Below are positions 39,536 to 51,738 of a stretch of 60,601 nucleotides of DNA, piece after piece. The position numbers and the translations under genes were made by a program. Source of the stretch: Candidatus Hermodarchaeum yapensis (GTDB taxonomy: Archaea > Asgardarchaeota > Hermodarchaeia > Hermodarchaeales > Hermodarchaeaceae). The number at the start of each line of letters is the position of its first letter. Within the stretch, counting starts at the first letter, position 1. The notes beneath the pieces are model-generated. The model saw only the letters and a program-made list of their open reading frames with translations. It was not told the DNA's origin and did no database searches. The stretch spans positions 1-60,601 of the forward strand of contig JAEOSK010000016.1 in the NCBI GenBank assembly GCA_016840405.1, in the 5' to 3' direction.

Positions 39536-40507
39536 ATGATGAACAAGAAACAGACTCTCATTCTTTACCATCCACTCATGGCAATGGAAGGGTACCCAGT
39601 TCTCGCTGGGCGTGTAGAACCTGCTTTTGAGTATCTTCGGGAAAGCGGAACTTTAGACGCCCCAGAGGTTTTTGTAGAAGAAGCCCAAGATGTACCTGAA
39701 GATTTGCTCTTATCGGTTCATACGGCGAATCATATCCAGCGTGTTAAGGATTCGGGGTACGATCCAGCTTCGCTTGTATCTGGTGGGGCGGCTGTCAGAG
39801 CGGGTGAAGCCGTTTGGCTCGGTGAAGCTGCTAATGCGTTTGCATTCACTGGTTGTGCAGGACATCATGCCAGTCGTGATTCGTTCTGGGGATTTTGTTA
39901 TTATAATAATTCAGCCCTGCTGGTGCGGCATCTTCAGCAAGTACATGATGTGAAGCAATTTTTCATTGTGGATACTGACCCTCATCCTGGTGATGGCACC
40001 CGTGACACGTTGGGTGATGATGAGGGTGTTTTTCATTTGAATTTCGAGGCGAGTTTCCGAGAACGAGTTGATATCACATCTGATCGACATGTGGATGTGC
40101 CTTTTCCGAGTAGTAGTGGAGATGAATCCTTTGTTGAAGCGGTTCGTCGATTGGTCCCTCCATTGGCTCGTCGAAGTCGAGCACAAATGATTCTGTGGAA
40201 TATGGGTCACGATGCCCATGCGCAGGATTATGGGGGATTCAATCTGTCGCTTCGGGCATTCCCTGCTATGACAGATATTTTGATTCAGGCAGCAGCTCAA
40301 GTGTGCTCAGGACGGCTTGTAGTACTGTTATCAGGGGGTTCCGAGGTGTTCGTGGCGCAGCACGCGATTTCGAGCATAGTCCGGAAACTGGCAGGTTTAC
40401 CATCACTACCTGAGGATATCCAAGATCAACCCAGCACTGAATCGAATGCTACGAAAGAAACAGCCCGTAAACTGACAGATACAGTCCTTCAGGAATGGGA
40501 CCTTTAA
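39536..40507 (+). CDS. histone deacetylase (HDAC/AcuC) family protein
   Basis: GHHA, GFCYYNN, DTDPHPGDGT, GHDAH; the EGGY motif appears as SGGS. Confidence 0.92.
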   Translation: MMNKKQTLILYHPLMAMEGYPVLAGRVEPAFEYLRESGTLDAPEVFVEEAQDVPEDLLLSVHTANHIQRVKDSGYDPASLVSGGAAVRAGEAVWLGEAANAFAFTGCAGHHASRDSFWGFCYYNNSALLVRHLQQVHDVKQFFIVDTDPHPGDGTRDTLGDDEGVFHLNFEASFRERVDITSDRHVDVPFPSSSGDESFVEAVRRLVPPLARRSRAQMILWNMGHDAHAQDYGGFNLSLRAFPAMTDILIQAAAQVCSGRLVVLLSGGSEVFVAQHAISSIVRKLAGLPSLPEDIQDQPSTESNATKETARKLTDTVLQEWDL

Positions 40508-40515
40508 GAGGAACA

Positions 40516-40974
40516 TTAGGTGGTTCCTACTTTTTCCCAAGCCACCCATTTACCTTGCGCTCGTCGGACTAAGACGAGCCCAAATCGTTGCCAGATTTCT
40601 TCACGGGTAAGAGGTTCTTCCGAGGACATGTGAAGTTGTGAATCGTGCTGGGGGCGTATAAGAGGAGACGGTTTCGTATAGAATAAGTTATCAATTAAAG
40701 CGCCCACGCGTCCTTTTTGGTATTGATCTTTAACGAAGATGAGGATCTGCTCAGAGGGAATATCGGCGGGTTGCAGAGTATGGCGAGGAACTCCTTGGCT
40801 AAATGAGGGACAGACACCACCCATAGTAGAGTGGACAATTTCAAGACATTGAGGGTCAACGAAAAACTGACACCGGACACATTGATGCCACCCGTCGTGA
40901 ATGGCTTGCTCTAACGTGGTCCGGGACCCGCAGGCCATGCAAGTGATGCCCACGGTGGAGAGATCTAACTTCAT
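40516..40974 (-). CDS. RING-like zinc-finger protein (Nse1-type spacing), last gene of the SMC operon
   Basis: CMAC...CVRC-x4-D-x2-C-x11-CP...H; ATGA overlap with upstream gene. Confidence 0.65.
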   Translation of the reverse strand: MKLDLSTVGITCMACGSRTTLEQAIHDGWHQCVRCQFFVDPQCLEIVHSTMGGVCPSFSQGVPRHTLQPADIPSEQILIFVKDQYQKGRVGALIDNLFYTKPSPLIRPQHDSQLHMSSEEPLTREEIWQRFGLVLVRRAQGKWVAWEKVGTT

Positions 40975-41612
40975 AGTTTATCACCCTCCTGAGTTGCTGT
41001 GGCACCTGCGAGATAGATGGTCGAAGCATTAGCTATAGCTTCGCGTCGTTCAGCGTCAAATTCCAGTTCAAGGCGGGGTCCATATGTGATTCGTCGAGCT
41101 GTGCGGGTGATGTATCCCAATTCACCAAGTCGACGAAGAATCCGATCTAATTGATAGCGAGAGAGTCGTCCTCGGGCAACAAGCACAGTTTCGATGTCTT
41201 TGGTGGCAATTCGTCGAGGTCGCTTAGTTTTACTAGCTCGTTCAATCGTGGCAATGATGACGCCTAAGACAGCATACTCGGGATCTGAGAGTTCTCCCGG
41301 TACCCCATAGAGGGTTCGAATACAGTACAGAGTATCGCGACCGAGTCGATATTCGACAAGTTCCAGACCTAACGGTGCGATTTCTTGGCGAAGCAAATCA
41401 AGGAGCCTTGTTAGCCCAGTCTTGTTGATATGGAGAGCTTCCTGCAAGTCTTGACGTTTGACCCCGATATTTAACTGGCCTTCTTCGTTTCGATACCGGG
41501 CGGTGAGAGCAGCAAAGAGTTGACCGAGAAGATGCCGTTCTTCAAATTCCTCTTCTTCCTTGACATCTGAAGGGTCAGGCACGTCATTAGGAGCATTAGG
41601 ATCGGTGGTCAT
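40971..41612 (-). CDS. kite-like tandem winged-helix protein (Nse1/Nse3/ScpB-like)
   Basis: Two WH-like units, APLGLELVE and LGELGYI...ITYGPRLELEF; position in the SMC operon. Confidence 0.65.
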   Translation of the reverse strand: MTTDPNAPNDVPDPSDVKEEEEFEERHLLGQLFAALTARYRNEEGQLNIGVKRQDLQEALHINKTGLTRLLDLLRQEIAPLGLELVEYRLGRDTLYCIRTLYGVPGELSDPEYAVLGVIIATIERASKTKRPRRIATKDIETVLVARGRLSRYQLDRILRRLGELGYITRTARRITYGPRLELEFDAERREAIANASTIYLAGATATQEGDKL

Positions 41613-42406
41613 CGACGACGCACCTCCGCGTATTTTTTCGCTTCAATGGCAACTGCGGCAAAAGTTGCATTGGCTGAAGGTTCTTTGTGTTTCGATAGAA
41701 ATTTTACTGAATTTTTGTCGAAGAGTGCAGGAATTATATTATCACGAATCATCTGGCTAAGAAGGTCCAATTCCCAATTTGTCAAGTGATCGGATAATTC
41801 GGAGTATTTGAAACGTTTTCCTTGAAGCCGTTTATGAAGTGTGTTTCTTAACGTATCAAGTGAGTCGATTGATACCTCAGAAAAGGGAACCTGATGTTGC
41901 TTCATCGCTTGTTGATCATCACGAGTGGGTGCTTCTGACATTGTTACAGGATTATCAGTATCGGGAAGGGAGAAGTGTGGAACGGAACGTTCACGATTCA
42001 CCAAAAACATTAGAGGTGTGGCTCGCCGCTTGACTTCCTCTGCGAAGTGGATAATCCATTCTTCTGGAGCTAGTTCAGGTGCTGCTAGATGAGAATCACG
42101 GTGGTGTTGCATGGTGGCAAGGGTATGGTAAAACCGACCGTCAAGATTCCGTTCCCATGGAGTTTCTAGGACCCGATAAGCATCAGCTACTTCTTCCCGA
42201 TCGATCTCAGCTTCTTTCACAGGAATGATATCCTTTTGCTTCAAAGCCCCTTCGTATTTCTTGGTAAGATTCCACAACGTGATTGTAATTCGTTTCGTTC
42301 CAAAGGGTGTCAATCGGTTGCGTTTGTAGTTATGTTGGAATGTTTCATACCAGGCTTTCCGTCGGGGGAATGCACGAAGATAGGTGGAGGTTTCATTTGA
42401 TAGCAT
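41609..42406 (-). CDS. putative kleisin-like SMC partner
   Basis: Coupled to the SMC stop; LDGRFYHTLATM...SHL and C-terminal FKYSEL segments loosely recall ScpA/Nse4; mainly positional. Confidence 0.45.
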   Translation of the reverse strand: MLSNETSTYLRAFPRRKAWYETFQHNYKRNRLTPFGTKRITITLWNLTKKYEGALKQKDIIPVKEAEIDREEVADAYRVLETPWERNLDGRFYHTLATMQHHRDSHLAAPELAPEEWIIHFAEEVKRRATPLMFLVNRERSVPHFSLPDTDNPVTMSEAPTRDDQQAMKQHQVPFSEVSIDSLDTLRNTLHKRLQGKRFKYSELSDHLTNWELDLLSQMIRDNIIPALFDKNSVKFLSKHKEPSANATFAAVAIEAKKYAEVRRR

Positions 42407-45336
42407 TAGGATTTCACCTCCCCTTTCAGAAGCACTATGTGATGCATGGTCTCGGGGATTTGGAGTCCCACGGTCGAAGGCGCCATCAGGAGAAACTGTG
42501 GTGGAATGAGTGTGTCTTCACTGCTAAGGGCTAGAGTTCGTTGCACAACGCTCAGAACAGCCGCCCGACTAGCCTCATCCAGACGTTGTGTGAATTCATC
42601 AATGACATGGAGGGGGCTCTTTGCGAGTGTATGTAATGCAAGGATAAAGGTCTGAGTGGCAAGAACTCGCTCACCACCCGACATTTCTTGATAAGTACGC
42701 CAATCGCCCTTTCGATTGATCGCAAGTTGAAGGTGCAATTCCGCTCGACTTGGTTCATCAGGAAAACGAACTATGAGTTTGACTTGTTTCAAGAAGTGGC
42801 TGAGAAGTTGATTCATTCGAAGATTGAGAGTTTCGACTGTTTGTTCTAGCTGGTGTCTCCATTCTGTTAACCGACGCTCAACATCTGTCATGAGGTTTTC
42901 AAGATGAAGCTGACGTTCTTTGAGATAATCATGAAGTTCCGACACAACTTTTTCTTGCTCTTCAAAGGCTGTGCGATCTTTCGCTGTTGCGGTGATTGTT
43001 GTTATCATTGCTTGAATTTGTAGTTGTTCGTCTCGAACAACGGAAGGCGTGCGGACCTCCTGAGGTCGTTCTCCCAACGATTTTGCTGTTTTTCGGAACT
43101 CTTTTGCTTGATCTAATATGTGTTTGTATTCATCTTCGCGTTGACGGAGTTCTTCGGTGATTTGGTCTATTATCGCCGAACGACGAGCCCGACGAGTATC
43201 TAGATTTTGGAGTTGCCCCTCGATCTTTTGTAATCGGGAATTGAGTGGAGAAAGCTCAGCTGATTGGTTTTGATAATCTTGACCCCATGCATCTCTTTGA
43301 TTATCTAGTTCCAAAATTTGTTGATGTAAGTCAGTGGCACGGAGTTCCAAATCCGATACCAGCGTGGTTTTTTCCATGTCAGTGAGTGTAGCAGTTTGTC
43401 CGTGCCGTAGATCTTGGAGCTGCACTCGGAGTTGACTGATTTCCGAGTTGGCCCGCATCCGATCTCGCATTAATCGTGCTTCTTCTTCGCGGAGTTCCCG
43501 AAGGAGTTGTCGGATTTTTGCGGTGTCCTGGGTTATTCCCAACTCGCGTAGTGGGGTACCTAAGTTGATGGTTACGGGGCGGGGTGGACGGGCAAAGGCT
43601 CCGATGCGGAGGTAAAAACTGGATCCTTCACTAGTGATGATGTTACCATTGAGTTGTTGTGTGGCATCCACTAGAGAGTTAGGATCTGCAGACTCTTCTG
43701 CGACAGCAGTGTTGACGACGCGACTGAGAAAACTCACTGCATAGGTGTCGCCTTCAATGAGATCAGCTGCCCATCCGAACACTGGGGGAGACACCACGGG
43801 TCTATCGCGGGTGATCGAAGTTGTTGGATTGGTTCGAGCAACCACTAGGTTTGGTTTTTCTTGAGGCCAAAGTTGATCAAAAAGGGTTTTTGCCTCGCTG
43901 AAAGCTTCACGGTTCAGAGCAATGAAGGCATAATTGTATCGACCCATTGCGAGTTTTACTGCGGTTTCGTGCTGAGCATGTTCTGGTTTCATACCAATTA
44001 GTGTGAAAATGGGACCAATCACAGAATCGGAGAGTACGCGTTGATCAAGCCCTTCTCGGAACCGCTGGCAAGCACGTAAGATGGTTTCTTCATAGCGGGG
44101 ATAACGTTGTGGTTGGGTAAACAGTTCTTCCTCGGTTGCTGTAATATCTTGTCGAAGGCTAGCCAGTTGTTCATCTAGCAGGTCACGTTCATTGGCAAAT
44201 GTAGTTAGTTCTTGTTGTAACACGGATTCTTTGGTTTTCTTAGTCCGTGGTCGCTTAGATTTTGAATAGCGTTGAATCTGCGAATTGACTGTGTTTAATT
44301 CATTTTCAAGTCCTTGGTGATGTCCTCTTGCCTGCATTTGCTGATCCCGAATTGACTCCAGCTTTCCTTGCAGCTTTTCCTTCTTTTCTCGTGCACGTTC
44401 ATATTTGGAGATAAGTTCAGCTCGTCGGTCATCGAGTTTGGTCAGATTCGCATTTTCAGTGGCTAAAAGCGCTTCCTGATTTGATATTTGTGTTTGAAGC
44501 TGTTCGGCTAATTCTTCTCGATAGGCAACTTCTGCCCAAGCAGCCTCGTTATCGAGAACCTGCAATCGCTCTTGCAGTTGTTGTTTTTGAAGAAACGCTT
44601 CATAGGCAGTTTTCAAAACTTGTAATCGTTGTTCCTCGTGTCGTATTCGATACTCCAAGGGCTTTACATTTGCCTTGGCTTGAAGAACTAGGAGGCGTGC
44701 TTCCTCAAGTTTTTCCATCCAATTCCGCAAACCTGTTTCATTTAGGAGCGTCTCAAATTTTCGTTTTGGTGATTGGGAGGCAAAATGGTCGAGGGTTTCG
44801 GCTTCGGTGATTGCTAGTGGTGAATCCCCAAATAGTCCTGCAGCTTGAAAGAGTTTCCGAATATCGGTTCGCGTGATTTGAGAACCATTAAGTGATCGTT
44901 GTCCATTAATCCAGTAAGAAATTCGGTTACTAGGATGAATTCGGAGACGAATCGATACTATGTCCCGGTCAAGGAGTTTCGCCAATGCATGATCAGGACT
45001 AGTAAGTATTCGTCGTCCATTCAATTGATAATTATTCAGTTCCAAAACAACTTCAGCGTATTTTTCAAAACGCCCAATGAAGGCTGCGTTCCGTTGTCGC
45101 TGTACCCGTCGAGATTCTACACCGATGGCATAGAGTAGAGCATCGAGAATTAGGGTTTTTCCACTTCCATTAGAACCCGTTATCAAAACAATGGGAGAGG
45201 CATCTAATCGAACGGTGGTGTCGCGGTGAATGACAAAGTTCACTAGGCGGATGCTACGAAATGCCAATGGTGGAATTGAAGGCGATAGCTCTTGCCCAGT
45301 GGTCATACGTCTACCTATCTCCCACGCGTTTTTCAT
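42406..45336 (-). CDS. SMC ATPase, Smc5/6-like
   Basis: IRLVNF, GSNGSGKT, coiled coils, hinge VIGPIFTLI, MSGGER...SPLHVIDEFTQRLD (Smc5/6-style head). Confidence 0.9.
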   Translation of the reverse strand: MKNAWEIGRRMTTGQELSPSIPPLAFRSIRLVNFVIHRDTTVRLDASPIVLITGSNGSGKTLILDALLYAIGVESRRVQRQRNAAFIGRFEKYAEVVLELNNYQLNGRRILTSPDHALAKLLDRDIVSIRLRIHPSNRISYWINGQRSLNGSQITRTDIRKLFQAAGLFGDSPLAITEAETLDHFASQSPKRKFETLLNETGLRNWMEKLEEARLLVLQAKANVKPLEYRIRHEEQRLQVLKTAYEAFLQKQQLQERLQVLDNEAAWAEVAYREELAEQLQTQISNQEALLATENANLTKLDDRRAELISKYERAREKKEKLQGKLESIRDQQMQARGHHQGLENELNTVNSQIQRYSKSKRPRTKKTKESVLQQELTTFANERDLLDEQLASLRQDITATEEELFTQPQRYPRYEETILRACQRFREGLDQRVLSDSVIGPIFTLIGMKPEHAQHETAVKLAMGRYNYAFIALNREAFSEAKTLFDQLWPQEKPNLVVARTNPTTSITRDRPVVSPPVFGWAADLIEGDTYAVSFLSRVVNTAVAEESADPNSLVDATQQLNGNIITSEGSSFYLRIGAFARPPRPVTINLGTPLRELGITQDTAKIRQLLRELREEEARLMRDRMRANSEISQLRVQLQDLRHGQTATLTDMEKTTLVSDLELRATDLHQQILELDNQRDAWGQDYQNQSAELSPLNSRLQKIEGQLQNLDTRRARRSAIIDQITEELRQREDEYKHILDQAKEFRKTAKSLGERPQEVRTPSVVRDEQLQIQAMITTITATAKDRTAFEEQEKVVSELHDYLKERQLHLENLMTDVERRLTEWRHQLEQTVETLNLRMNQLLSHFLKQVKLIVRFPDEPSRAELHLQLAINRKGDWRTYQEMSGGERVLATQTFILALHTLAKSPLHVIDEFTQRLDEASRAAVLSVVQRTLALSSEDTLIPPQFLLMAPSTVGLQIPETMHHIVLLKGEVKS

Positions 45337-45375
45337 TCGGTGACGTTATTCACTAACTCAAACTAGACCATGACT

Positions 45376-45494
45376 CTTAAACTTTCACTTAATCGAAGGA
45401 CAGGGCGCCACTTCTAACCTTTTTTGTCCCGACATATTTCCAGCCTTGATTAAACAAGGACGAGAAGGCGAGTTAGCATCGAGAAAAGTTAAAG
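45376..45494. promoter_or_regulatory. divergent promoter region between the SMC and Ubl operons
   Basis: Minus-strand gaaagtttaag (45376-45386) and plus-strand gaaaagttaaag (45483-45494) BRE/TATA-like boxes. Confidence 0.45.
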
Positions 45495-45530
45495 TGTGTG
45501 CTACGCTCCTCCCCAGATAGGTGATTTGTC

Positions 45531-45857
45531 ATGAGCAATGAAGAAGGTTTTTGGCGCTCAATCATTGTGGACGTTGAGCCACGCCAGAAGGAATTTCGAA
45601 TTGGTATTGATGATGAAACCCGAGTTGAAGAAGTAATTCGCACCCTTGTAACACAAGCTCGGGATGAAGGCGTGAGTGTTGATGATTGGGCGAAAGCAAA
45701 GATTGGAGATCAACGCCCAGAATTCGTTCTAATTCGAAAAGCCCCAGAACCCACCAGATTAAGCCCCGGTGCCACCTTTGGGGAATTGGAACCAAAAATC
45801 ACTGATGATGAGTTCTTCCTCTTAGATGTCGTACCAGAAGTAGGGTTCTCGTCCTAA
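45531..45857 (+). CDS. ubiquitin-like (beta-grasp) modifier with C-terminal VG-FSS
   Basis: Beta-beta-alpha pattern (IIVDV...FRIGIDDETRVEEVIRTL), FVL strand, L..GATFGEL, final strand ending EVG + 3 residues; first gene before E2. Confidence 0.7.
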   Translation: MSNEEGFWRSIIVDVEPRQKEFRIGIDDETRVEEVIRTLVTQARDEGVSVDDWAKAKIGDQRPEFVLIRKAPEPTRLSPGATFGELEPKITDDEFFLLDVVPEVGFSS

Positions 45858-45906: not shown

Positions 45907-46668
45907 ATGTCGCGTCCAGTATTCTCAACGGAGTTATTCAACGCTCGAGTCGAAACTCAGATTCACACGTTCTTCGATACAATGAGCAATCTGTACGGTC
46001 GAAGGGGTTGGCAACCGGACCCACCAATTCGGGAGGACACCACATGGTCAAATGCAGATTTCACTGTAGCCATTATCAGCCGATATCGTGATGGAACATA
46101 TAAACGAATACGGTTTATTATGCGAAACCTCCCTGGATATGTGCGGGAGCCTGACTCGTTAACAAGCACAAGGTCCTTACGGTATGAGCATCGATTTGTG
46201 TTCGATCTTCCCCGGGAGTATCCCCAAAACATTGGTACGATTCGACCCGCAGCAGAATTACCACTCTTTCATCCCCGGCTATCAGCGAGTGGAACTGGAC
46301 ATGCTTGCTATTCAGTTCGCGGGGAATTGGACCGCATTTTAGAGGACCTGCCATTCTTTGTGTTGTTGAAACCAGACCGTGTGGAACCGCCATCTCAATT
46401 CCAATCGGACCGAGGTCTGAATGCTGCAGCTATGGCCTGGTATGAAAAAGATACAGAGAATATCGTGAATACTCTGGACCGTCTTTGGGAAGACCGTCAT
46501 CAGACTAGCGTTATTATGACTCCATTGAAAGGGCGTGTCCGAATTCTTGATGGTGAACCTGAACCAGCTAGAACAAGTCGACGACCACCACGTATTTTGG
46601 ATGTGAAAGAACAGCGGTCTGGGACAGTACGAATTCTAGATGATTCATCTTCAAATGACGATTCTTAG
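45907..46668 (+). CDS. E2 ubiquitin-conjugating-enzyme-like protein
   Basis: FVFDLPREYP...PLFHPRL...GHAC (catalytic Cys), LNAAAMAWY; disordered tail. Confidence 0.82.
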   Translation: MSRPVFSTELFNARVETQIHTFFDTMSNLYGRRGWQPDPPIREDTTWSNADFTVAIISRYRDGTYKRIRFIMRNLPGYVREPDSLTSTRSLRYEHRFVFDLPREYPQNIGTIRPAAELPLFHPRLSASGTGHACYSVRGELDRILEDLPFFVLLKPDRVEPPSQFQSDRGLNAAAMAWYEKDTENIVNTLDRLWEDRHQTSVIMTPLKGRVRILDGEPEPARTSRRPPRILDVKEQRSGTVRILDDSSSNDDS

Positions 46669-46681
46669 GTGATTTTGCGCA

Positions 46682-46882
46682 ATGTCGGACCGTCCACCTG
46701 ATAAGGAAGAAGAGAAGGAAGAATCGGAAAAAGATGAGGAACCGACATCAAATCGCATTGTTGTATTAAATGAACGGGATATACCCTTTGAAGAAGAACG
46801 CCCACCGAATTTTTCACCACACTTTGCAGTTAAAGTGCACCGTGTGCAGAAAGACACTAGTTCGGAGGAGAATGAGAAGTGA
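46682..46882 (+). CDS. small acidic hypothetical protein in the Ubl operon
   Basis: AGGTGA SD; overlaps next gene; RIVVLNE motif. Confidence 0.55.
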   Translation: MSDRPPDKEEEKEESEKDEEPTSNRIVVLNERDIPFEEERPPNFSPHFAVKVHRVQKDTSSEENEK

Positions 46883-47265
46883 GTGTGCATGGCGCATCGC
46901 ATATGAAGTGCGTAGCCTGTGCAAACCAAGTTTCACTGGATGAAGCACGACGTGAATGGTGGATTTGTACAACATGTGGTAGCTACATGTGTCCCAACTG
47001 TCGATCATTGTTTCTTGAAACTGGACAGGGAACCTGTCCTGGCACAATCGTTCGGGGGGTTGAATCTCACCCACCCCATTTCACACGGTTCCTCGGTCCA
47101 CGAGATGAACCAGAAGTTGTGTTACCTGAAATTCGTTCAACGGTGGAAATCTTAGAAGATGTGCGACGGAATCAGCCCCGTTCACCCGGTGGTCGAGTGA
47201 TTATCCTTGATGACGATGAAGCCCTAGGCGAAGCTGACGAAGAAACGCAAGGTCAGGAGCAATGA
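46879..47265 (+). CDS. RING-like zinc-finger protein (putative E3)
   Basis: CVAC...CTTC-x4-CPNC-x11-CP...H; acidic tail with VIILDDDE. Confidence 0.7.
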   Translation: MSVHGASHMKCVACANQVSLDEARREWWICTTCGSYMCPNCRSLFLETGQGTCPGTIVRGVESHPPHFTRFLGPRDEPEVVLPEIRSTVEILEDVRRNQPRSPGGRVIILDDDEALGEADEETQGQEQ

Positions 47266-48137
47266 AAACTTCCTCCACAATTCTTTCTCACAGAGTCACC
47301 TATTCAACCAAGATTCAAAATACTTCGGATAATCCACTCTCTGGGATCCGTGTGTTTGTTGCCTTTCCACCACCCCTCCCTCCTCGCCAAGAACTCATTA
47401 ATCTGTCATCAATTCCTGTTTCGGGTCGTCAGGCCACAGATTTGAAGGGAAATCATTGGTTGGATTTGACCTGCGACCGATTAGCTGGAAAGGAAACATT
47501 CACCTGTGGTTACACTGCGTTGGTCCGGAATCGTTCCATCCATTACAGACTGCCCCAGTCTACTAGAAACTCCTCAGTACCCTCCAGCCTCGTTGGATAC
47601 ACCAAACCAGAAAACTTCATAGAATCTCACCATCACCTAATCAAAGACCTAGCCCGTGACCTTTCCAGCAAAAACCCCAATCCCATTCCATTCGTGAAAG
47701 CTGCAATGCGTGCTGTAACAAAAACAATTCGATATTCTCCTCAGAAGTATGAGCGCGGGGCTGCTTTTGCGATTGAAAAACACGTCGGAGATTGCACCGA
47801 ATTTGCTGCACTATTTACTGCCCTCTGTCGGGCGAAAGGAATTCCTGCAAGATTAGAAGCGGGATTTGCATATAATAGGAAAAAGTGGGAGCGGCATGCA
47901 TGGAGTGTAGTGTGGATTCAGGACAATTGGATTCCCGTTGATCCGACGTGGTATGGCAACAGTGGCTGGTTGGGCGTGACCAACCGTCACATTCCCCTCA
48001 TTATTGGTAACTGGATGGATATTCGTATCCACCAAGAGTTCAAAATGACATGGTCGCACAAACCACAAACAACTCCACCACAATTGGGTTCAAAATGGAA
48101 AGTCACGAAAGTTGTGAGTATCTTAAATTCAAGCTAG
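47262..48137 (+). CDS. transglutaminase-like (Cys-His-Asp) protein
   Basis: GDCTEFA...CRAKGIPAR, HAW, WIPVDPTW. Confidence 0.92.
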   Translation: MKTSSTILSHRVTYSTKIQNTSDNPLSGIRVFVAFPPPLPPRQELINLSSIPVSGRQATDLKGNHWLDLTCDRLAGKETFTCGYTALVRNRSIHYRLPQSTRNSSVPSSLVGYTKPENFIESHHHLIKDLARDLSSKNPNPIPFVKAAMRAVTKTIRYSPQKYERGAAFAIEKHVGDCTEFAALFTALCRAKGIPARLEAGFAYNRKKWERHAWSVVWIQDNWIPVDPTWYGNSGWLGVTNRHIPLIIGNWMDIRIHQEFKMTWSHKPQTTPPQLGSKWKVTKVVSILNSS

Positions 48138-49004
48138 TTATTTGTGTTTTCGTTTGTCCCGACAAAATGTCTCACTACATCGTGGGTTCACCATTATTTG
48201 ACCCGACGCAGCCTGATGTCGATTTAGGTCGTACTTGATAAACCGACCCAAAGCAGGTTCCAAACCGTCTTGCCACTGTCCCGTTTCTCGCCACTGTTTC
48301 AACCCCACAAGAACGCGAACCGCCTCCCAGGCCATTACAGCACCCACCACTGAGGTCACAAAACTAATCATAGGAAATCGCGGAACTGTGTCCACAAAGA
48401 AAGGGTCACATCGTGTCCGTACCTCATTGGCGACAACGTGGTCGACGAAGTCTTTACTCCACGAGCACACAAGACATGCTGTGTGAGGAGGCGCAAGCAC
48501 CTCAACTGAGACAAAATCCTTGCCCATCGCCCCATTAATGAGAGGATGTGGTGGATTAAAGCTGAAATTTTTCGCATTTAGGAGATAGCGTGCATAGTGA
48601 TTATCTACACCAACCAAGACCAGTTGAGTATCCCAGACAGAATCGGGCGCTTGTTGAATAGTCGCTGCGTGAGGTTCGACTACAGTGTTCGTGGCGAGTT
48701 CTGGTAACCGTTCAGCTACCGCCTCCACTTTGAATTTGGCTTCATGGTCTCCTGGGCGGAAAAAGATACAACGATTAAGATTCGATGCAGCAACTTTGTC
48801 CGGATCCACCAAGATAATTTTGCCTACGCCAAGTAATCCAAGGTTTTTACATACCTCATTTCCAACAGCACCAGCGCCTACCATGAGTACTGTAGATTGT
48901 TGGATGGTTTCGAGATTATTAGCTCCCAGCCAGCGACGAGTCCGATCGTGTTGATCTCGCTCGAAAAAACTAAGTTCAATTGGCGTGGGTGATTCCTTAG
49001 TCAT
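48138..49004 (-). CDS. E1-like ubiquitin-activating enzyme (ThiF/MoeB family)
   Basis: VGAGAVGNEVCKNL, DPDKVAASNLNR, VDN, CLVC, candidate catalytic Cys in RTRCD; ATG 49004 overlaps the JAB stop. Confidence 0.92.
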   Translation of the reverse strand: MTKESPTPIELSFFERDQHDRTRRWLGANNLETIQQSTVLMVGAGAVGNEVCKNLGLLGVGKIILVDPDKVAASNLNRCIFFRPGDHEAKFKVEAVAERLPELATNTVVEPHAATIQQAPDSVWDTQLVLVGVDNHYARYLLNAKNFSFNPPHPLINGAMGKDFVSVEVLAPPHTACLVCSWSKDFVDHVVANEVRTRCDPFFVDTVPRFPMISFVTSVVGAVMAWEAVRVLVGLKQWRETGQWQDGLEPALGRFIKYDLNRHQAASGQIMVNPRCSETFCRDKRKHK

Positions 49005-49611
49005 GAGGTTCAGCCTCCTCATCCTGTTGGGTCTCTTCAGAAGTTGGTGTGCTTTCGTCAATTGGTACAGAGGGTTGGTAAGTACACCAGTCTACCTGTT
49101 CGAGTTGAAGACCTGGTTCATCGGGTCGAGGACGAAGCATATAGACTTTGAAAATGCGACTCAACGGGTCAATGAGGAAGAAGATATTACCCTCAGCACA
49201 GAATGGTGTATTGAAGAAAGTGCGTAAATCAGTGGATGAGAACTGCGGGTCGCCACCGAATGGGTGCGAATGCCAGAGCCCTACAACGCGAGGCGTATGT
49301 GGATTAGTCCCATATCGATCATGTAATGCTAAGCGGTATTCTAGAATGCCTTCTGGTGTGAACCGAGCATACGCCATACTTGCTTCAACGCGTCCAGTGG
49401 CCCAATCAGTTACTCGGATGTAATTTTCATCTAGCCATGTACGGCGGAAGCCGAGAATCACCCCGAGCGCTTCACGCGGTGGCTGCCGTATTGCTTCCTG
49501 ATGACAAAAATTGAATATCTCATGGCAGGTCCGTTTATAGACATAAACTGGGTACACTGGTTCATCGATTAATGTATCACTGTTTACCATGGGAATATCT
49601 TGATTTGACAT
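48997..49611 (-). CDS. JAB/MPN+ (JAMM) metalloprotease
   Basis: EALGVILG, VVGLWHSHP...FSSTD, LIDP. Confidence 0.92.
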   Translation of the reverse strand: MSNQDIPMVNSDTLIDEPVYPVYVYKRTCHEIFNFCHQEAIRQPPREALGVILGFRRTWLDENYIRVTDWATGRVEASMAYARFTPEGILEYRLALHDRYGTNPHTPRVVGLWHSHPFGGDPQFSSTDLRTFFNTPFCAEGNIFFLIDPLSRIFKVYMLRPRPDEPGLQLEQVDWCTYQPSVPIDESTPTSEETQQDEEAEPHD

Positions 49612-49715
49612 GAGCCGTTCACACCATTTCACTTGATTATGAATAGTTAAATCCTAGTGATACACCCATATATTTCCAAGCAGTCTATCACAAATGGAAA
49701 GGGAGTTGGATAGCA

Positions 49716-50259: not shown

Positions 50260-51738
50260 CTAAAACTGGCTAAGATGAGAGGTATCACCAAGTTTGCTAG
50301 ACCAGGGATAGCGCTCCATGATATTATCTAGTAGGCGACGTAGCTTCGTAACTTCAGATGTATTTGAATAAACTAGAAAGACAACTCGTCCACCACGACT
50401 GCGTTTCATTTTCTGATAAATTGTCTTTGTTGTGTTCACTGTATCACAGATAATGAGTAAATCTGTATCTGGTAAATCCAAGTCACGTTCCCCTACAGGT
50501 GAGAGGATGACCGCAGCGGGGGGTTTGGCTTGCCTGAACTCTGAGAGTAAAGCTTGTTTGTCCATCGTCCGCCCAGTAAGCTGAAAGGTTTGGACTCCTT
50601 TTTCTGTGAGGAGCCTATCGATTTCACTGACAACAGTAAGGTATGAGGAGAGGATTACGGTTTTTTCTGCATTAAGAGCAAGATCTCGGGCTTCGATGGA
50701 TTTCGGTGTAGTTTTGGGCCAATCTTGCATCATTCGGTTGACATCGATTTGGGGTTTAATGGTGGGATGATGAAGATACCGTCGAAAACTCTTTGCAGAC
50801 ATGCCGTAGAGATATTTCCGAATCATCAGAAGTCCATTATATTTTTGTCCGAGTTCTTCAGAGATGGGTAGTTCGTGAAGCATCAAGTGGAGTAACCGCG
50901 TGTTCTCGGGAAGTGTTCCGACGGGTTCTTTTGTAGCTTCTCGAACGGTTTCATAGATTTCTTCTCGAGTCGACTGAATTAGGTCATCGAGGACCAATGC
51001 CATTGTCCGGATGACTGGATTCTGGACCGGAGCTGCGTCAAGGATGGTGGGTTTGATGTATTGCTCCAAGTCAGTGCCTACGAGTTCATCCATGCTGATC
51101 AATTCAACATTGGTCAGAAAAGTGGCGAGGGTTTGGAGTTCATCTCGAATTTGAATTTGCGCGTCGTTGAAGATGACGTGGTCGTCACGAAGTGTTCCAC
51201 TAAGCCCAATAATCCAGCGATCTTTAAAGAAGTCCAGGAGGAAGCTCCAGGGTTGGATGAGAACTTGATTATGTCCAACACGACGGAGAATGGTATCTAC
51301 CTCGTTGATGAGGAGTCCTTCGAAATGCTCAGGGCCGAGTTCACCTTTTCGGAGAATATTCGCAAGGACGCGAGCGGTACTAAGAACGACGCGTGAGTCG
51401 CGTAGGAGTTTGACACGTTGGGGTCCACGAACAAATGGTGTGAGGACCCCCAACCCTTCGACACCACCGTATTCTTCCTCGAGATATTGGGCAGTTTCTT
51501 GGAGTGAGGATGAAGAATTGACAGTAATTACAAAACGTGTGGTGGGGAAGAGCTCGGTGACAAGTTTGTAAGTGAGAACGCGTTTTCCAAGCCCGCAATC
51601 TAATTCCACTAGGATGTTGTTGTTGCGATTTTCCTTGACGCGTTTGAGAATGTGCTCTTGATATTGTCGTGTGTCAAATCGGGGGGTGTCGGAATCGCAA
51701 TCCAGTGGTTCTGCGGGGGGAGTAGGTGACATCTTCAC
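50260..51738 (-). CDS. degenerate Hef/FANCM-like SF2 helicase
   Basis: RQYQ, DCGLGKR, INEVD, GLSGT, SPVGERDLDLP, QKMKRSRGG: SF2 motif order with altered catalytic residues. Confidence 0.75.
   Translation of the reverse strand: MKMSPTPPAEPLDCDSDTPRFDTRQYQEHILKRVKENRNNNILVELDCGLGKRVLTYKLVTELFPTTRFVITVNSSSSLQETAQYLEEEYGGVEGLGVLTPFVRGPQRVKLLRDSRVVLSTARVLANILRKGELGPEHFEGLLINEVDTILRRVGHNQVLIQPWSFLLDFFKDRWIIGLSGTLRDDHVIFNDAQIQIRDELQTLATFLTNVELISMDELVGTDLEQYIKPTILDAAPVQNPVIRTMALVLDDLIQSTREEIYETVREATKEPVGTLPENTRLLHLMLHELPISEELGQKYNGLLMIRKYLYGMSAKSFRRYLHHPTIKPQIDVNRMMQDWPKTTPKSIEARDLALNAEKTVILSSYLTVVSEIDRLLTEKGVQTFQLTGRTMDKQALLSEFRQAKPPAAVILSPVGERDLDLPDTDLLIICDTVNTTKTIYQKMKRSRGGRVVFLVYSNTSEVTKLRRLLDNIMERYPWSSKLGDTSHLSQF

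Follow-up and report, generated by a model that had tools for sequence, protein, structure and literature searches.

Does the window, a stretch of 60,601 nucleotides from Candidatus Hermodarchaeum yapensis that was analysed as a whole, carry the SMC subunit Nse1 in two pieces? Eukaryotic Nse1 consists of two winged-helix units (WH-WH) ending in an R-x-x-x-E-L helix and followed by a RING with the spacing C-x2-C-x4-H-x2-C-x12-CP. To our knowledge, the prokaryotic kites ScpB, MukE and JetB have no RING. The Nse1 RING is of the C4HC3 type and has a structural role (PMC8750328), and it has been regarded as a eukaryotic innovation that is absent from archaeal kites (bioRxiv 10.1101/2024.01.07.573240). 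In the window, the gene of a kite candidate is followed by that of a 152-aa Cys-rich protein, which we named CysP (40516-40974, minus strand). According to the original prediction, fusion of these two genes would give the Nse1 architecture. The genes and domains of the operon in which they lie are listed below.

42406..45336, minus strand: SMC-like ATPase (976 aa; Pfam SMC_N, E 5e-23), the second, non-canonical SMC of the genome
41609..42406, minus strand: kleisin candidate (265 aa), named for its position between SMC and kite and for its architecture; no family match
40971..41612, minus strand: kite candidate (213 aa), whose two halves each have weak matches to winged-helix proteins; conserved as the third operon gene
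40516..40974, minus strand: CysP, zinc protein (152 aa) with a predicted RING-like domain and a C-terminal alpha/beta domain
40777..40950, minus strand: RING/U-box-like two-zinc finger of CysP (residues 9-66), predicted from eight conserved ligand columns, the model and structural matches
40519..40776, minus strand: C-terminal domain of CysP (residues 67-152), modelled as a helix pair and a three-stranded sheet joined by a low-confidence linker
45337..45530, no strand: divergent intergenic region of 194 bp, common to the SMC operon and the Ubl operon (from the ORF coordinates)

The list of open reading frames showed that the SMC, 265-aa, 213-aa and 152-aa genes are four tightly packed genes on the minus strand. 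The overlap between the last two, noted in the original prediction, is real: the frames at 40971-41612 (213 aa) and 40516-40974 (152 aa) share 4 nt, ATGA, which holds both the kite stop codon TGA and the ATG of CysP. Further, GGAGG is located 8-13 nt upstream of this ATG. The PDB matches of the 976-aa SMC were the heads of Smc, SMC3, Smc4 and SMC6, and phmmer detected Pyrococcus Smc (5e-18), SMC3 (8e-12), SMC6 (3e-9) and SMC5 (6e-4), values that do not discriminate an SMC5/6 affinity. Another contig of the same genome encodes a canonical SMC of 1199 aa with an adjacent ScpB. In the 265-aa protein, a helical N-terminal block and a winged-helix-like C-terminal block are conserved and the acidic linker between them is variable. 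This architecture and the position of the gene make the protein a candidate kleisin; hhalign found nothing between it and ScpA or between it and the kite. A second SMC accompanied by kleisin-sized and kite-sized genes, beside canonical SMC-ScpAB, is also a feature of the archaeal SMC operons related to SMC5/6 (bioRxiv 10.1101/2024.01.07.573240; PMC8665677). The operons in those papers have three genes, whereas a RING-like gene is the constant fourth gene here.

The 213-aa protein had been predicted to comprise two winged-helix-like units and to end with ITYGPRLELEF. Both of its halves matched winged-helix proteins, but sub-threshold or weakly throughout: Pfam gave MarR at residues 50-74 (E 0.014) and MarR_2 at residues 144-172 (E 9e-4), and a PDB profile match to SarS covered residues 143-199 (E 0.0011). 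The motif ITYGPRLELEF is present but does not end the protein, which continues for 28 residues beyond it. The gene occupies the position of a kite, downstream of SMC and the kleisin candidate in one operon, and this order is kept in 16 loci. A weak match to MksE was found in 2 of the 22 kite members scanned, and hhalign found nothing between the kite and the ScpB of the same genome. Profile comparison with the families to which the original prediction had pointed, SMC_Nse1, MAGE and zf-RING-like, gave no match for the kite or for the finger of CysP. SMC_Nse1 (PF07574) did not match the kite at E <=1, any of 22 kite members at E <=10 or any protein of the whole genome at E <=10. Further, MAGE did not match the kite in Pfam profile scans, and neither an Nse1 nor an Nse3 chain appeared in the PDB profile search with the kite. 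ESM Atlas returned low-score leads only (MAGE and DUF4194 at 0.80).

We examined the distribution of the operon among 301 Asgard genomes sorted by family (f1, f4, f5, f24, f25, f27, f29 and others). CysP orthologs were found in 57 of the 301 genomes, and in two more with a deeper profile. The families that have the kite subfamily are those that have CysP, with equal counts (15/18 in f1, 26/29 in f4, 9/11 in f27, and others), and neither was detected in the two most populous families (0/76 and 0/68). Two genomes seemed to have the kite alone, but CysP was present when the deeper profile was used. Across the 301 genomes, the occurrence of CysP matches that of the kite subfamily one to one. Further, the order SMC, kleisin candidate, kite, CysP was observed in all 14 loci with enough flanking sequence (f4, f5, f24 and f27) and in two further loci from f25, that is, in 16 of 16 loci from at least five Asgard families. 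CysP is the constant fourth gene of the second, non-canonical Asgard SMC operon and is translationally coupled to the kite gene. In a third, more distant SMC-kite operon, which belongs to another family, no zinc gene follows the kite.

The spacing of Cys residues in CysP was confirmed as C12-x2-C15-x16-C32-x2-C35-x4-D40-x2-C43-x11-C55-P56, including D40 and C55-P56. Residues C12, C32, C35, C43, C55 and H65 are invariant in CysP orthologs down to 24% identity. C15 is replaced with His in one family (f27), and ligand 2 of the CysP paralogs is Cys, His or Asp. Because the position of D40 is occupied by Cys in every CysP family except that of the window, its Asp is a derived ligand change. The eight metal-ligand columns form four pairs, and the only replacements within them, His or Asp for Cys, are themselves metal ligands; the pattern is therefore far from chance. 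The ligand scheme is C4-C/D-C2-H, in which ligand 8 is a His located 8-10 residues past ligand 7, and the CP motif after ligand 7 is conserved. The residue before ligand 2, which usually contacts E2, is variable in the orthologs (A, G, F, E, L or S). In the C-terminal domain, F98, E126, W128, R138, G141 and W146 are conserved.

When 61 members of the finger family were scanned with Pfam, none of the RING models reached its cut-off. Below threshold, zf-RING_4 matched 10 of the 61, and the best E values of zf-C3HC4 and zf-RING_UBOX were 0.001 and 2e-4, respectively. B-box, IBR and FYVE models matched equally, also below threshold, and B-box and IBR were the commonest weak matches; zf-RING-like, the Pfam model of the Nse1 RING, was absent among the weak matches of these members. 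The best PDB sequence match of the finger profile was the RING of RNF4, over ligands 5-7 and the intervening helix, followed by FYVE, Hakai, TRIM21, BRE1 and NOT4, and no Nse1 chain was detected at E <=10. The PDB profile searches with the whole of CysP and with the kite gave no informative match, and ESM Atlas returned low-score leads only for CysP (B-box and Prok-RING_1). In other Asgard proteins, the finger is fused to Ras-like GTPases, to SWIM-like proteins (identified by eye) and to proteins without a family match. It is thus a general, mobile module of Asgard archaea.

Diverse relatives of CysP were collected by a profile search of 1.84 billion representatives, which gave a 61-sequence alignment. 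The AF2 model built with this alignment had a pLDDT of 86 overall and of approximately 95 over residues 11-80, and it superseded an earlier model from a shallow 21-sequence alignment (pLDDT 51). In the finger, the model contains strands at residues 9-12, 18-20 and 30-32 and, between ligands 6 and 7, a helix at residues 41-50. Two further helices, at residues 74-86 and 92-98, begin the C-terminal part, in which a linker of low confidence leads to three strands within residues 122-148 (pLDDT of approximately 90 for residues 121-150).

Foldseek against the PDB gave no match at E <0.09 with the first model or at E <0.33 with the second. VIA, a structure search that is independent of Foldseek, compared CysP with 48,161 chains. 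Most of the 50 top matches, which we inspected, were RING, U-box, SP-RING or ZZ domains, with a best Z of 5.8; all values were below 6, a range that can reflect a common arrangement of small domains. The matches included APC11 (Z 5.5; 63 residues, 3.0 A), RBX1 (Z 5.4, in a second look), the U-box of Prp19 (Z 5.0-5.2; 1.7-1.8 A over 48 residues) and SP-RING chains (Z 4.5-4.8), among them that of Nse2 (Z 4.8). The RING of Nse1 ranked 36th (2ct0, Z 4.4; 58 residues, 3.3 A) and 49th (7dg2_A, Z 4.2). With the CysP finger as query, its Z of 4.2-4.4 was lower than that of APC11, RBX1 or the U-box (5.4-5.8). A zinc-ribbon alternative, the 30S ribosomal zinc protein 9fhl_a of S. solfataricus (Z 5-6), was a single match among dozens of RING and U-box matches and was rejected. 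The fold class of CysP rests on the uniform list of structural matches together with the ligand pattern: in a confident model with modest Z values (<=5.8), the N-terminal approximately 70 residues are predicted to form a RING/U-box-like two-zinc domain, in agreement with the RING-like reading of the original prediction.

Non-ligase fingers (ZZ, B-box and FYVE) match the CysP finger about as well, and this brings in the main rival explanation. CysP could be a non-catalytic ZZ- or B-box-like module that braces the kite-kleisin module or serves as a reader of DNA, of a peptide or of a Ubl-tagged protein, and it would then have no E3 function. A ZZ domain was matched over nearly its full length (9lgr_A, 58 of 59 residues, Z 4.5), and the prominence of B-box and IBR among the weak Pfam matches points the same way. 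ZZ fingers have a distant His as their last ligand, as does CysP. Further, the Nse1 RING is itself structural (PMC8750328). On the other hand, the top structural matches are catalytic RING and U-box domains, and CysP has kept the CP that follows ligand 7 as well as the helix that lies between ligands 6 and 7.

The fold also bears on the question of a split Nse1, in which CysP would be either a precursor of Nse1 from before the fusion or a split form of Nse1 that has survived, and fusion of the kite and RING-like genes toward eukaryotes would have given WH-WH-RING. The two genes are adjacent, overlapping and in the correct order, Nse1 RING chains are among the structural matches (2ct0 and 7dg2_A), and the core spacing C-x2-C-x4-ligand-x2-C equals that of Nse1. 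Further, the operon is of the second SMC type, which has been linked to SMC5/6 (PMC8665677; bioRxiv 10.1101/2024.01.07.573240). However, the Nse1 RING is C4HC3 (PMC8750328), whereas ligand 5 of CysP is Cys or Asp, its last ligand is a distant His and there is no CPxC knuckle. Neither the finger nor the kite matched Nse1 in sequence, the Nse1 RING is not the structurally closest RING, and the finger family is common to many unrelated Asgard proteins.

The kite and the finger are encoded by two genes with an intervening stop codon, not by one polypeptide as in Nse1. A search for natural fusions detected none, either among kite homologs of 117-373 aa or in a finger profile search without a length limit. 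Long proteins with the finger at the C-terminus (243-397 aa) were considered as Nse1-like fusions and rejected: three are Ras-like GTPases, and for the others there was no match to Nse1 or to the kite. A concealed fusion by read-through was likewise rejected for this genome, as the frame of the finger is closed just upstream of the ATG and is open for 153 codons only. In the solved Nse1 chain 7dg2_A (231 residues), the RING match covers residues 176-232 and ends at the C-terminus of the chain. A kite-CysP fusion would carry an extra C-terminal domain of approximately 85 residues, because CysP has a second domain of its own, which has no counterpart in Nse1. Accordingly, the original prediction of a split Nse1 is supported for the arrangement and the modelled RING-like fold but not for ligands, sequence, fusions and the extra domain. 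We consider it unlikely that CysP is such a precursor or split form. The likeness to Nse1 is partly supported as one of arrangement, a kite followed by a RING-like finger; nothing shows that CysP is a member of the Nse1 family or that Nse1 was born by the fusion of these two genes.

On the other side of the intergenic region, the SMC gene is faced by a cluster of genes of a ubiquitin-like (Ubl) cascade, as follows.

45531..45857, plus strand: Ubl candidate (108 aa, ending VG-FSS), with a weak YukD match; orthologs in another family end at VG
45907..46668, plus strand: E2-like protein (253 aa) with an HPR...C134 motif and weak PDB profile matches to E2 enzymes
46879..47265, plus strand: small zinc-finger protein (128 aa), paralog of the CysP finger (BLASTP 2e-7)
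47262..48137, plus strand: transglutaminase-like protein (Pfam Transglut_core, E 3e-22)
48138..49061, minus strand: E1-like protein (ThiF; Pfam ThiF, E 1e-34)
48997..49632, minus strand: JAB/MPN metalloprotease (Pfam Prok-JAB, E 2e-8)

The cluster diverges from the SMC gene at a distance of 194 bp, and the genes of the ThiF-type E1 and JAB are convergent to it. In another family, the Ubl orthologs stop exactly at the conserved VG, to which the Ubl of the window adds FSS. The E2-like protein did not match Pfam UQ_con; 19 of the 22 weak PDB matches of its profile were E2 enzymes, aligned over the region of the active-site Cys. The 128-aa protein has Cys at the position of D40 of CysP and weak matches to RING, FYVE and IBR, and it does not have the conserved C-terminal domain of CysP. 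The transglutaminase-like gene is paired with a small zinc protein in another family as well.

The coordinates showed that the divergent Ubl/SMC layout is present in the window and in 12 further genomes of its family. In f27 and f5, the order is instead SMC, kleisin candidate, kite, CysP, JAB, E1, and in f27 the Ubl and E2-like genes come next after E1 on the same strand. The Ubl cascade is thus genetically linked to the SMC operon in two different arrangements. The E2-like family is confined to families that bear CysP (18/18 in f1, f5, 9/11 in f27 and 2/2 in f29). In f4, the largest CysP-bearing family, it was found in 0 of 29 genomes despite the presence of CysP in 26 of 29, and the CysP finger therefore cannot depend on the Ubl cascade. 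Canonical UQ_con E2 genes were found in all five f4 genomes tested. Because the distribution of the E2-like family is nested within the CysP families, the broader unit is the module of SMC and CysP, to which some lineages add the private cascade.

These results bear on two of the explanations for CysP. The direct tandem of CysP, JAB, E1, Ubl and E2-like genes in f27 and f5, and the paralogy between CysP and the small zinc protein of the Ubl operon, would be consistent with CysP being a free E3 or regulator of the Ubl cascade that has the SMC complex as its substrate and is merely co-transcribed, without being a stable SMC subunit. Against this, CysP comes after the kite in all lineages, also where the cascade was not found, its gene overlaps the kite gene, and it owns a conserved C-terminal domain that is missing from the Ubl-operon paralog; a free E3 or regulator is therefore very unlikely. 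With regard to the non-catalytic ZZ- or B-box-like module, the retention of CysP in f4, where the neighbouring E2-like family was not found, is in its favour. The canonical E2 genes of the f4 genomes tested weigh on the other side, as does the 128-aa paralog, which fills the place of the RING E3 in a cluster of Ubl, E2, E1 and JAB genes; archaeal ubiquitin operons with a small RING E3 are known (PMC5654768). A purely non-catalytic role seems doubtful to us.

We consider it probable that the second Asgard SMC complex includes CysP as a dedicated fourth component, whose finger, a two-zinc cross-brace of the RING/U-box kind, acts as an E3-like adaptor on the kite-kleisin module. CysP would be made in step with the kite and incorporated into the kite-kleisin module, for which its C-terminal domain may provide the contact. 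With a charged E2 recruited by the finger to the complex on DNA, the SMC complex or its neighbours would be tagged. The partner would be the neighbouring E2-like enzyme where this is present and a canonical E2 encoded elsewhere in other lineages. Alternatively or in addition, CysP may serve as a structural brace that holds the subcomplex together, comparable to the Nse1 RING.

By analogy, CysP may work like the ligase arm of eukaryotic Smc5/6. As in the Nse1-Nse3-Nse4 part of that complex, a RING-like two-zinc finger is located at the kite position of a non-canonical SMC with a link to ubiquitin-type conjugation. In contrast to Nse1, the CysP finger is encoded by a separate gene and is not a domain of the kite, and no counterpart of a second kite, Nse2 or Nse5/6 was seen in the Asgard operon. 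Nse2/Mms21, the SP-RING SUMO ligase bound to Smc5, is also a separate RING-type polypeptide that provides an SMC complex with a Ubl-ligase arm, and SP-RING chains matched CysP with Z of 4.5-4.8. Nse2/Mms21 binds a single zinc in its SP-RING and uses a helical domain to attach to the arm of Smc5. CysP differs in its eight ligand columns and its unrelated C-terminal domain. The third comparison is with srfp, the small E3 of the ubiquitin operons of Caldiarchaeum and Asgard archaea, which was modelled in C. subterraneum as a RING-H2 (PMC5654768). These operons also combine a small zinc finger with Ubl, E1, E2 and a JAB/Rpn11-type protease, and the finger in question here is the 128-aa paralog. 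Unlike srfp, CysP and this paralog do not have His at ligands 4 and 5, CysP lies in an SMC operon and has a second domain, and the E2 of the cluster is divergent (HPR motif, no Pfam UQ_con match).

Our literature search brought up no report of a zinc-finger gene in the SMC operons of archaea. That a RING-like protein is the constant companion of the kite in the second Asgard SMC operon, and is genetically linked to a Ubl cascade in two independent arrangements, contrasts with the view that the RING was a eukaryotic gain. In the most far-reaching scenario, the ubiquitin-type ligase arm of Smc5/6 would be pre-eukaryotic: a second Asgard SMC with a RING-like subunit would have been wired to E1, E2, Ubl and JAB, and CysP or a relative would later have been fused to a kite to form Nse1. 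We put this forward as a speculation with a low chance of being correct. The four genes of the SMC operon and the five of the Ubl cluster are a set small enough to be reconstituted in vitro, and such a system could reveal what use a ligase arm is to an SMC machine. Our results suggest that it may have been in archaea that a complex of the SMC5/6 type was first coupled to protein tagging.

The following genes of the window are considered here:

39536-40507 (+), histone-deacetylase-family gene
41609-42406 (-), 265-aa kleisin candidate
45531-45857 (+), ubiquitin-like (Ubl) candidate
45907-46668 (+), E2-like protein
46879-48137 (+), small zinc protein and transglutaminase-like protein
50260-51738 (-), 492-aa SF2 helicase-like protein

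When the profile of the kleisin candidate was compared with the PDB, just two matches were obtained at E values up to 10. The top match was an Nse1 chain (7dg2_A, E 0.03), in which residues 36-146 of Nse1 were aligned with profile positions 104-213. This match could reflect a chance similarity between winged helices, or it could be a hint that the kleisin candidate is itself kite-like. Alignment of the kleisin candidate with the 213-aa kite candidate using hhalign yielded no match.

A third, more distant SMC-like operon was detected in a genome of another Asgard family (G038, locus L058, 3570-7201). It comprises:

835-aa SMC
218-aa protein
172-aa kite-like protein

There is no zinc-finger gene after this operon.

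The zinc-finger module of CysP, the 152-aa zinc protein of the window, also forms the C-terminal part of other proteins (P0131, P0133, P0140, P0132, P0135, P0137 and P0139). These include Ras-like small GTPases, proteins that on visual inspection look SWIM-like, and proteins with coiled coils but without a family match. Ligand 2 of the module in these carriers is Cys, His or Asp. The CysP gene is convergent with the histone-deacetylase-family gene (Pfam Hist_deacetyl, E 1e-41), and 8 bp separate their ends. The helicase-like protein (ResIII and Helicase_C) is encoded just past the Ubl cluster.

Within that cluster, the small zinc protein and transglutaminase-like genes are joined by an ATGA overlap. 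They form a conserved pair, and in family f27 (locus L037, 8105-10003) the same two genes are adjacent, 6.6 kb from an E2-like gene. The E2-like protein of the window carries HPR in place of HPN and an N-terminal extension of approximately 90 residues. It did not match Pfam UQ_con, and nearly all of its weak PDB matches were E2 enzymes. Two canonical UQ_con genes are present elsewhere in the same genome.

The Ubl candidate of the window ends in VG-FSS, whereas its orthologs in another Asgard family terminate exactly at the conserved VG. This difference in the termini suggests that the window's Ubl candidate is a pro-form that would be trimmed to a single C-terminal Gly.
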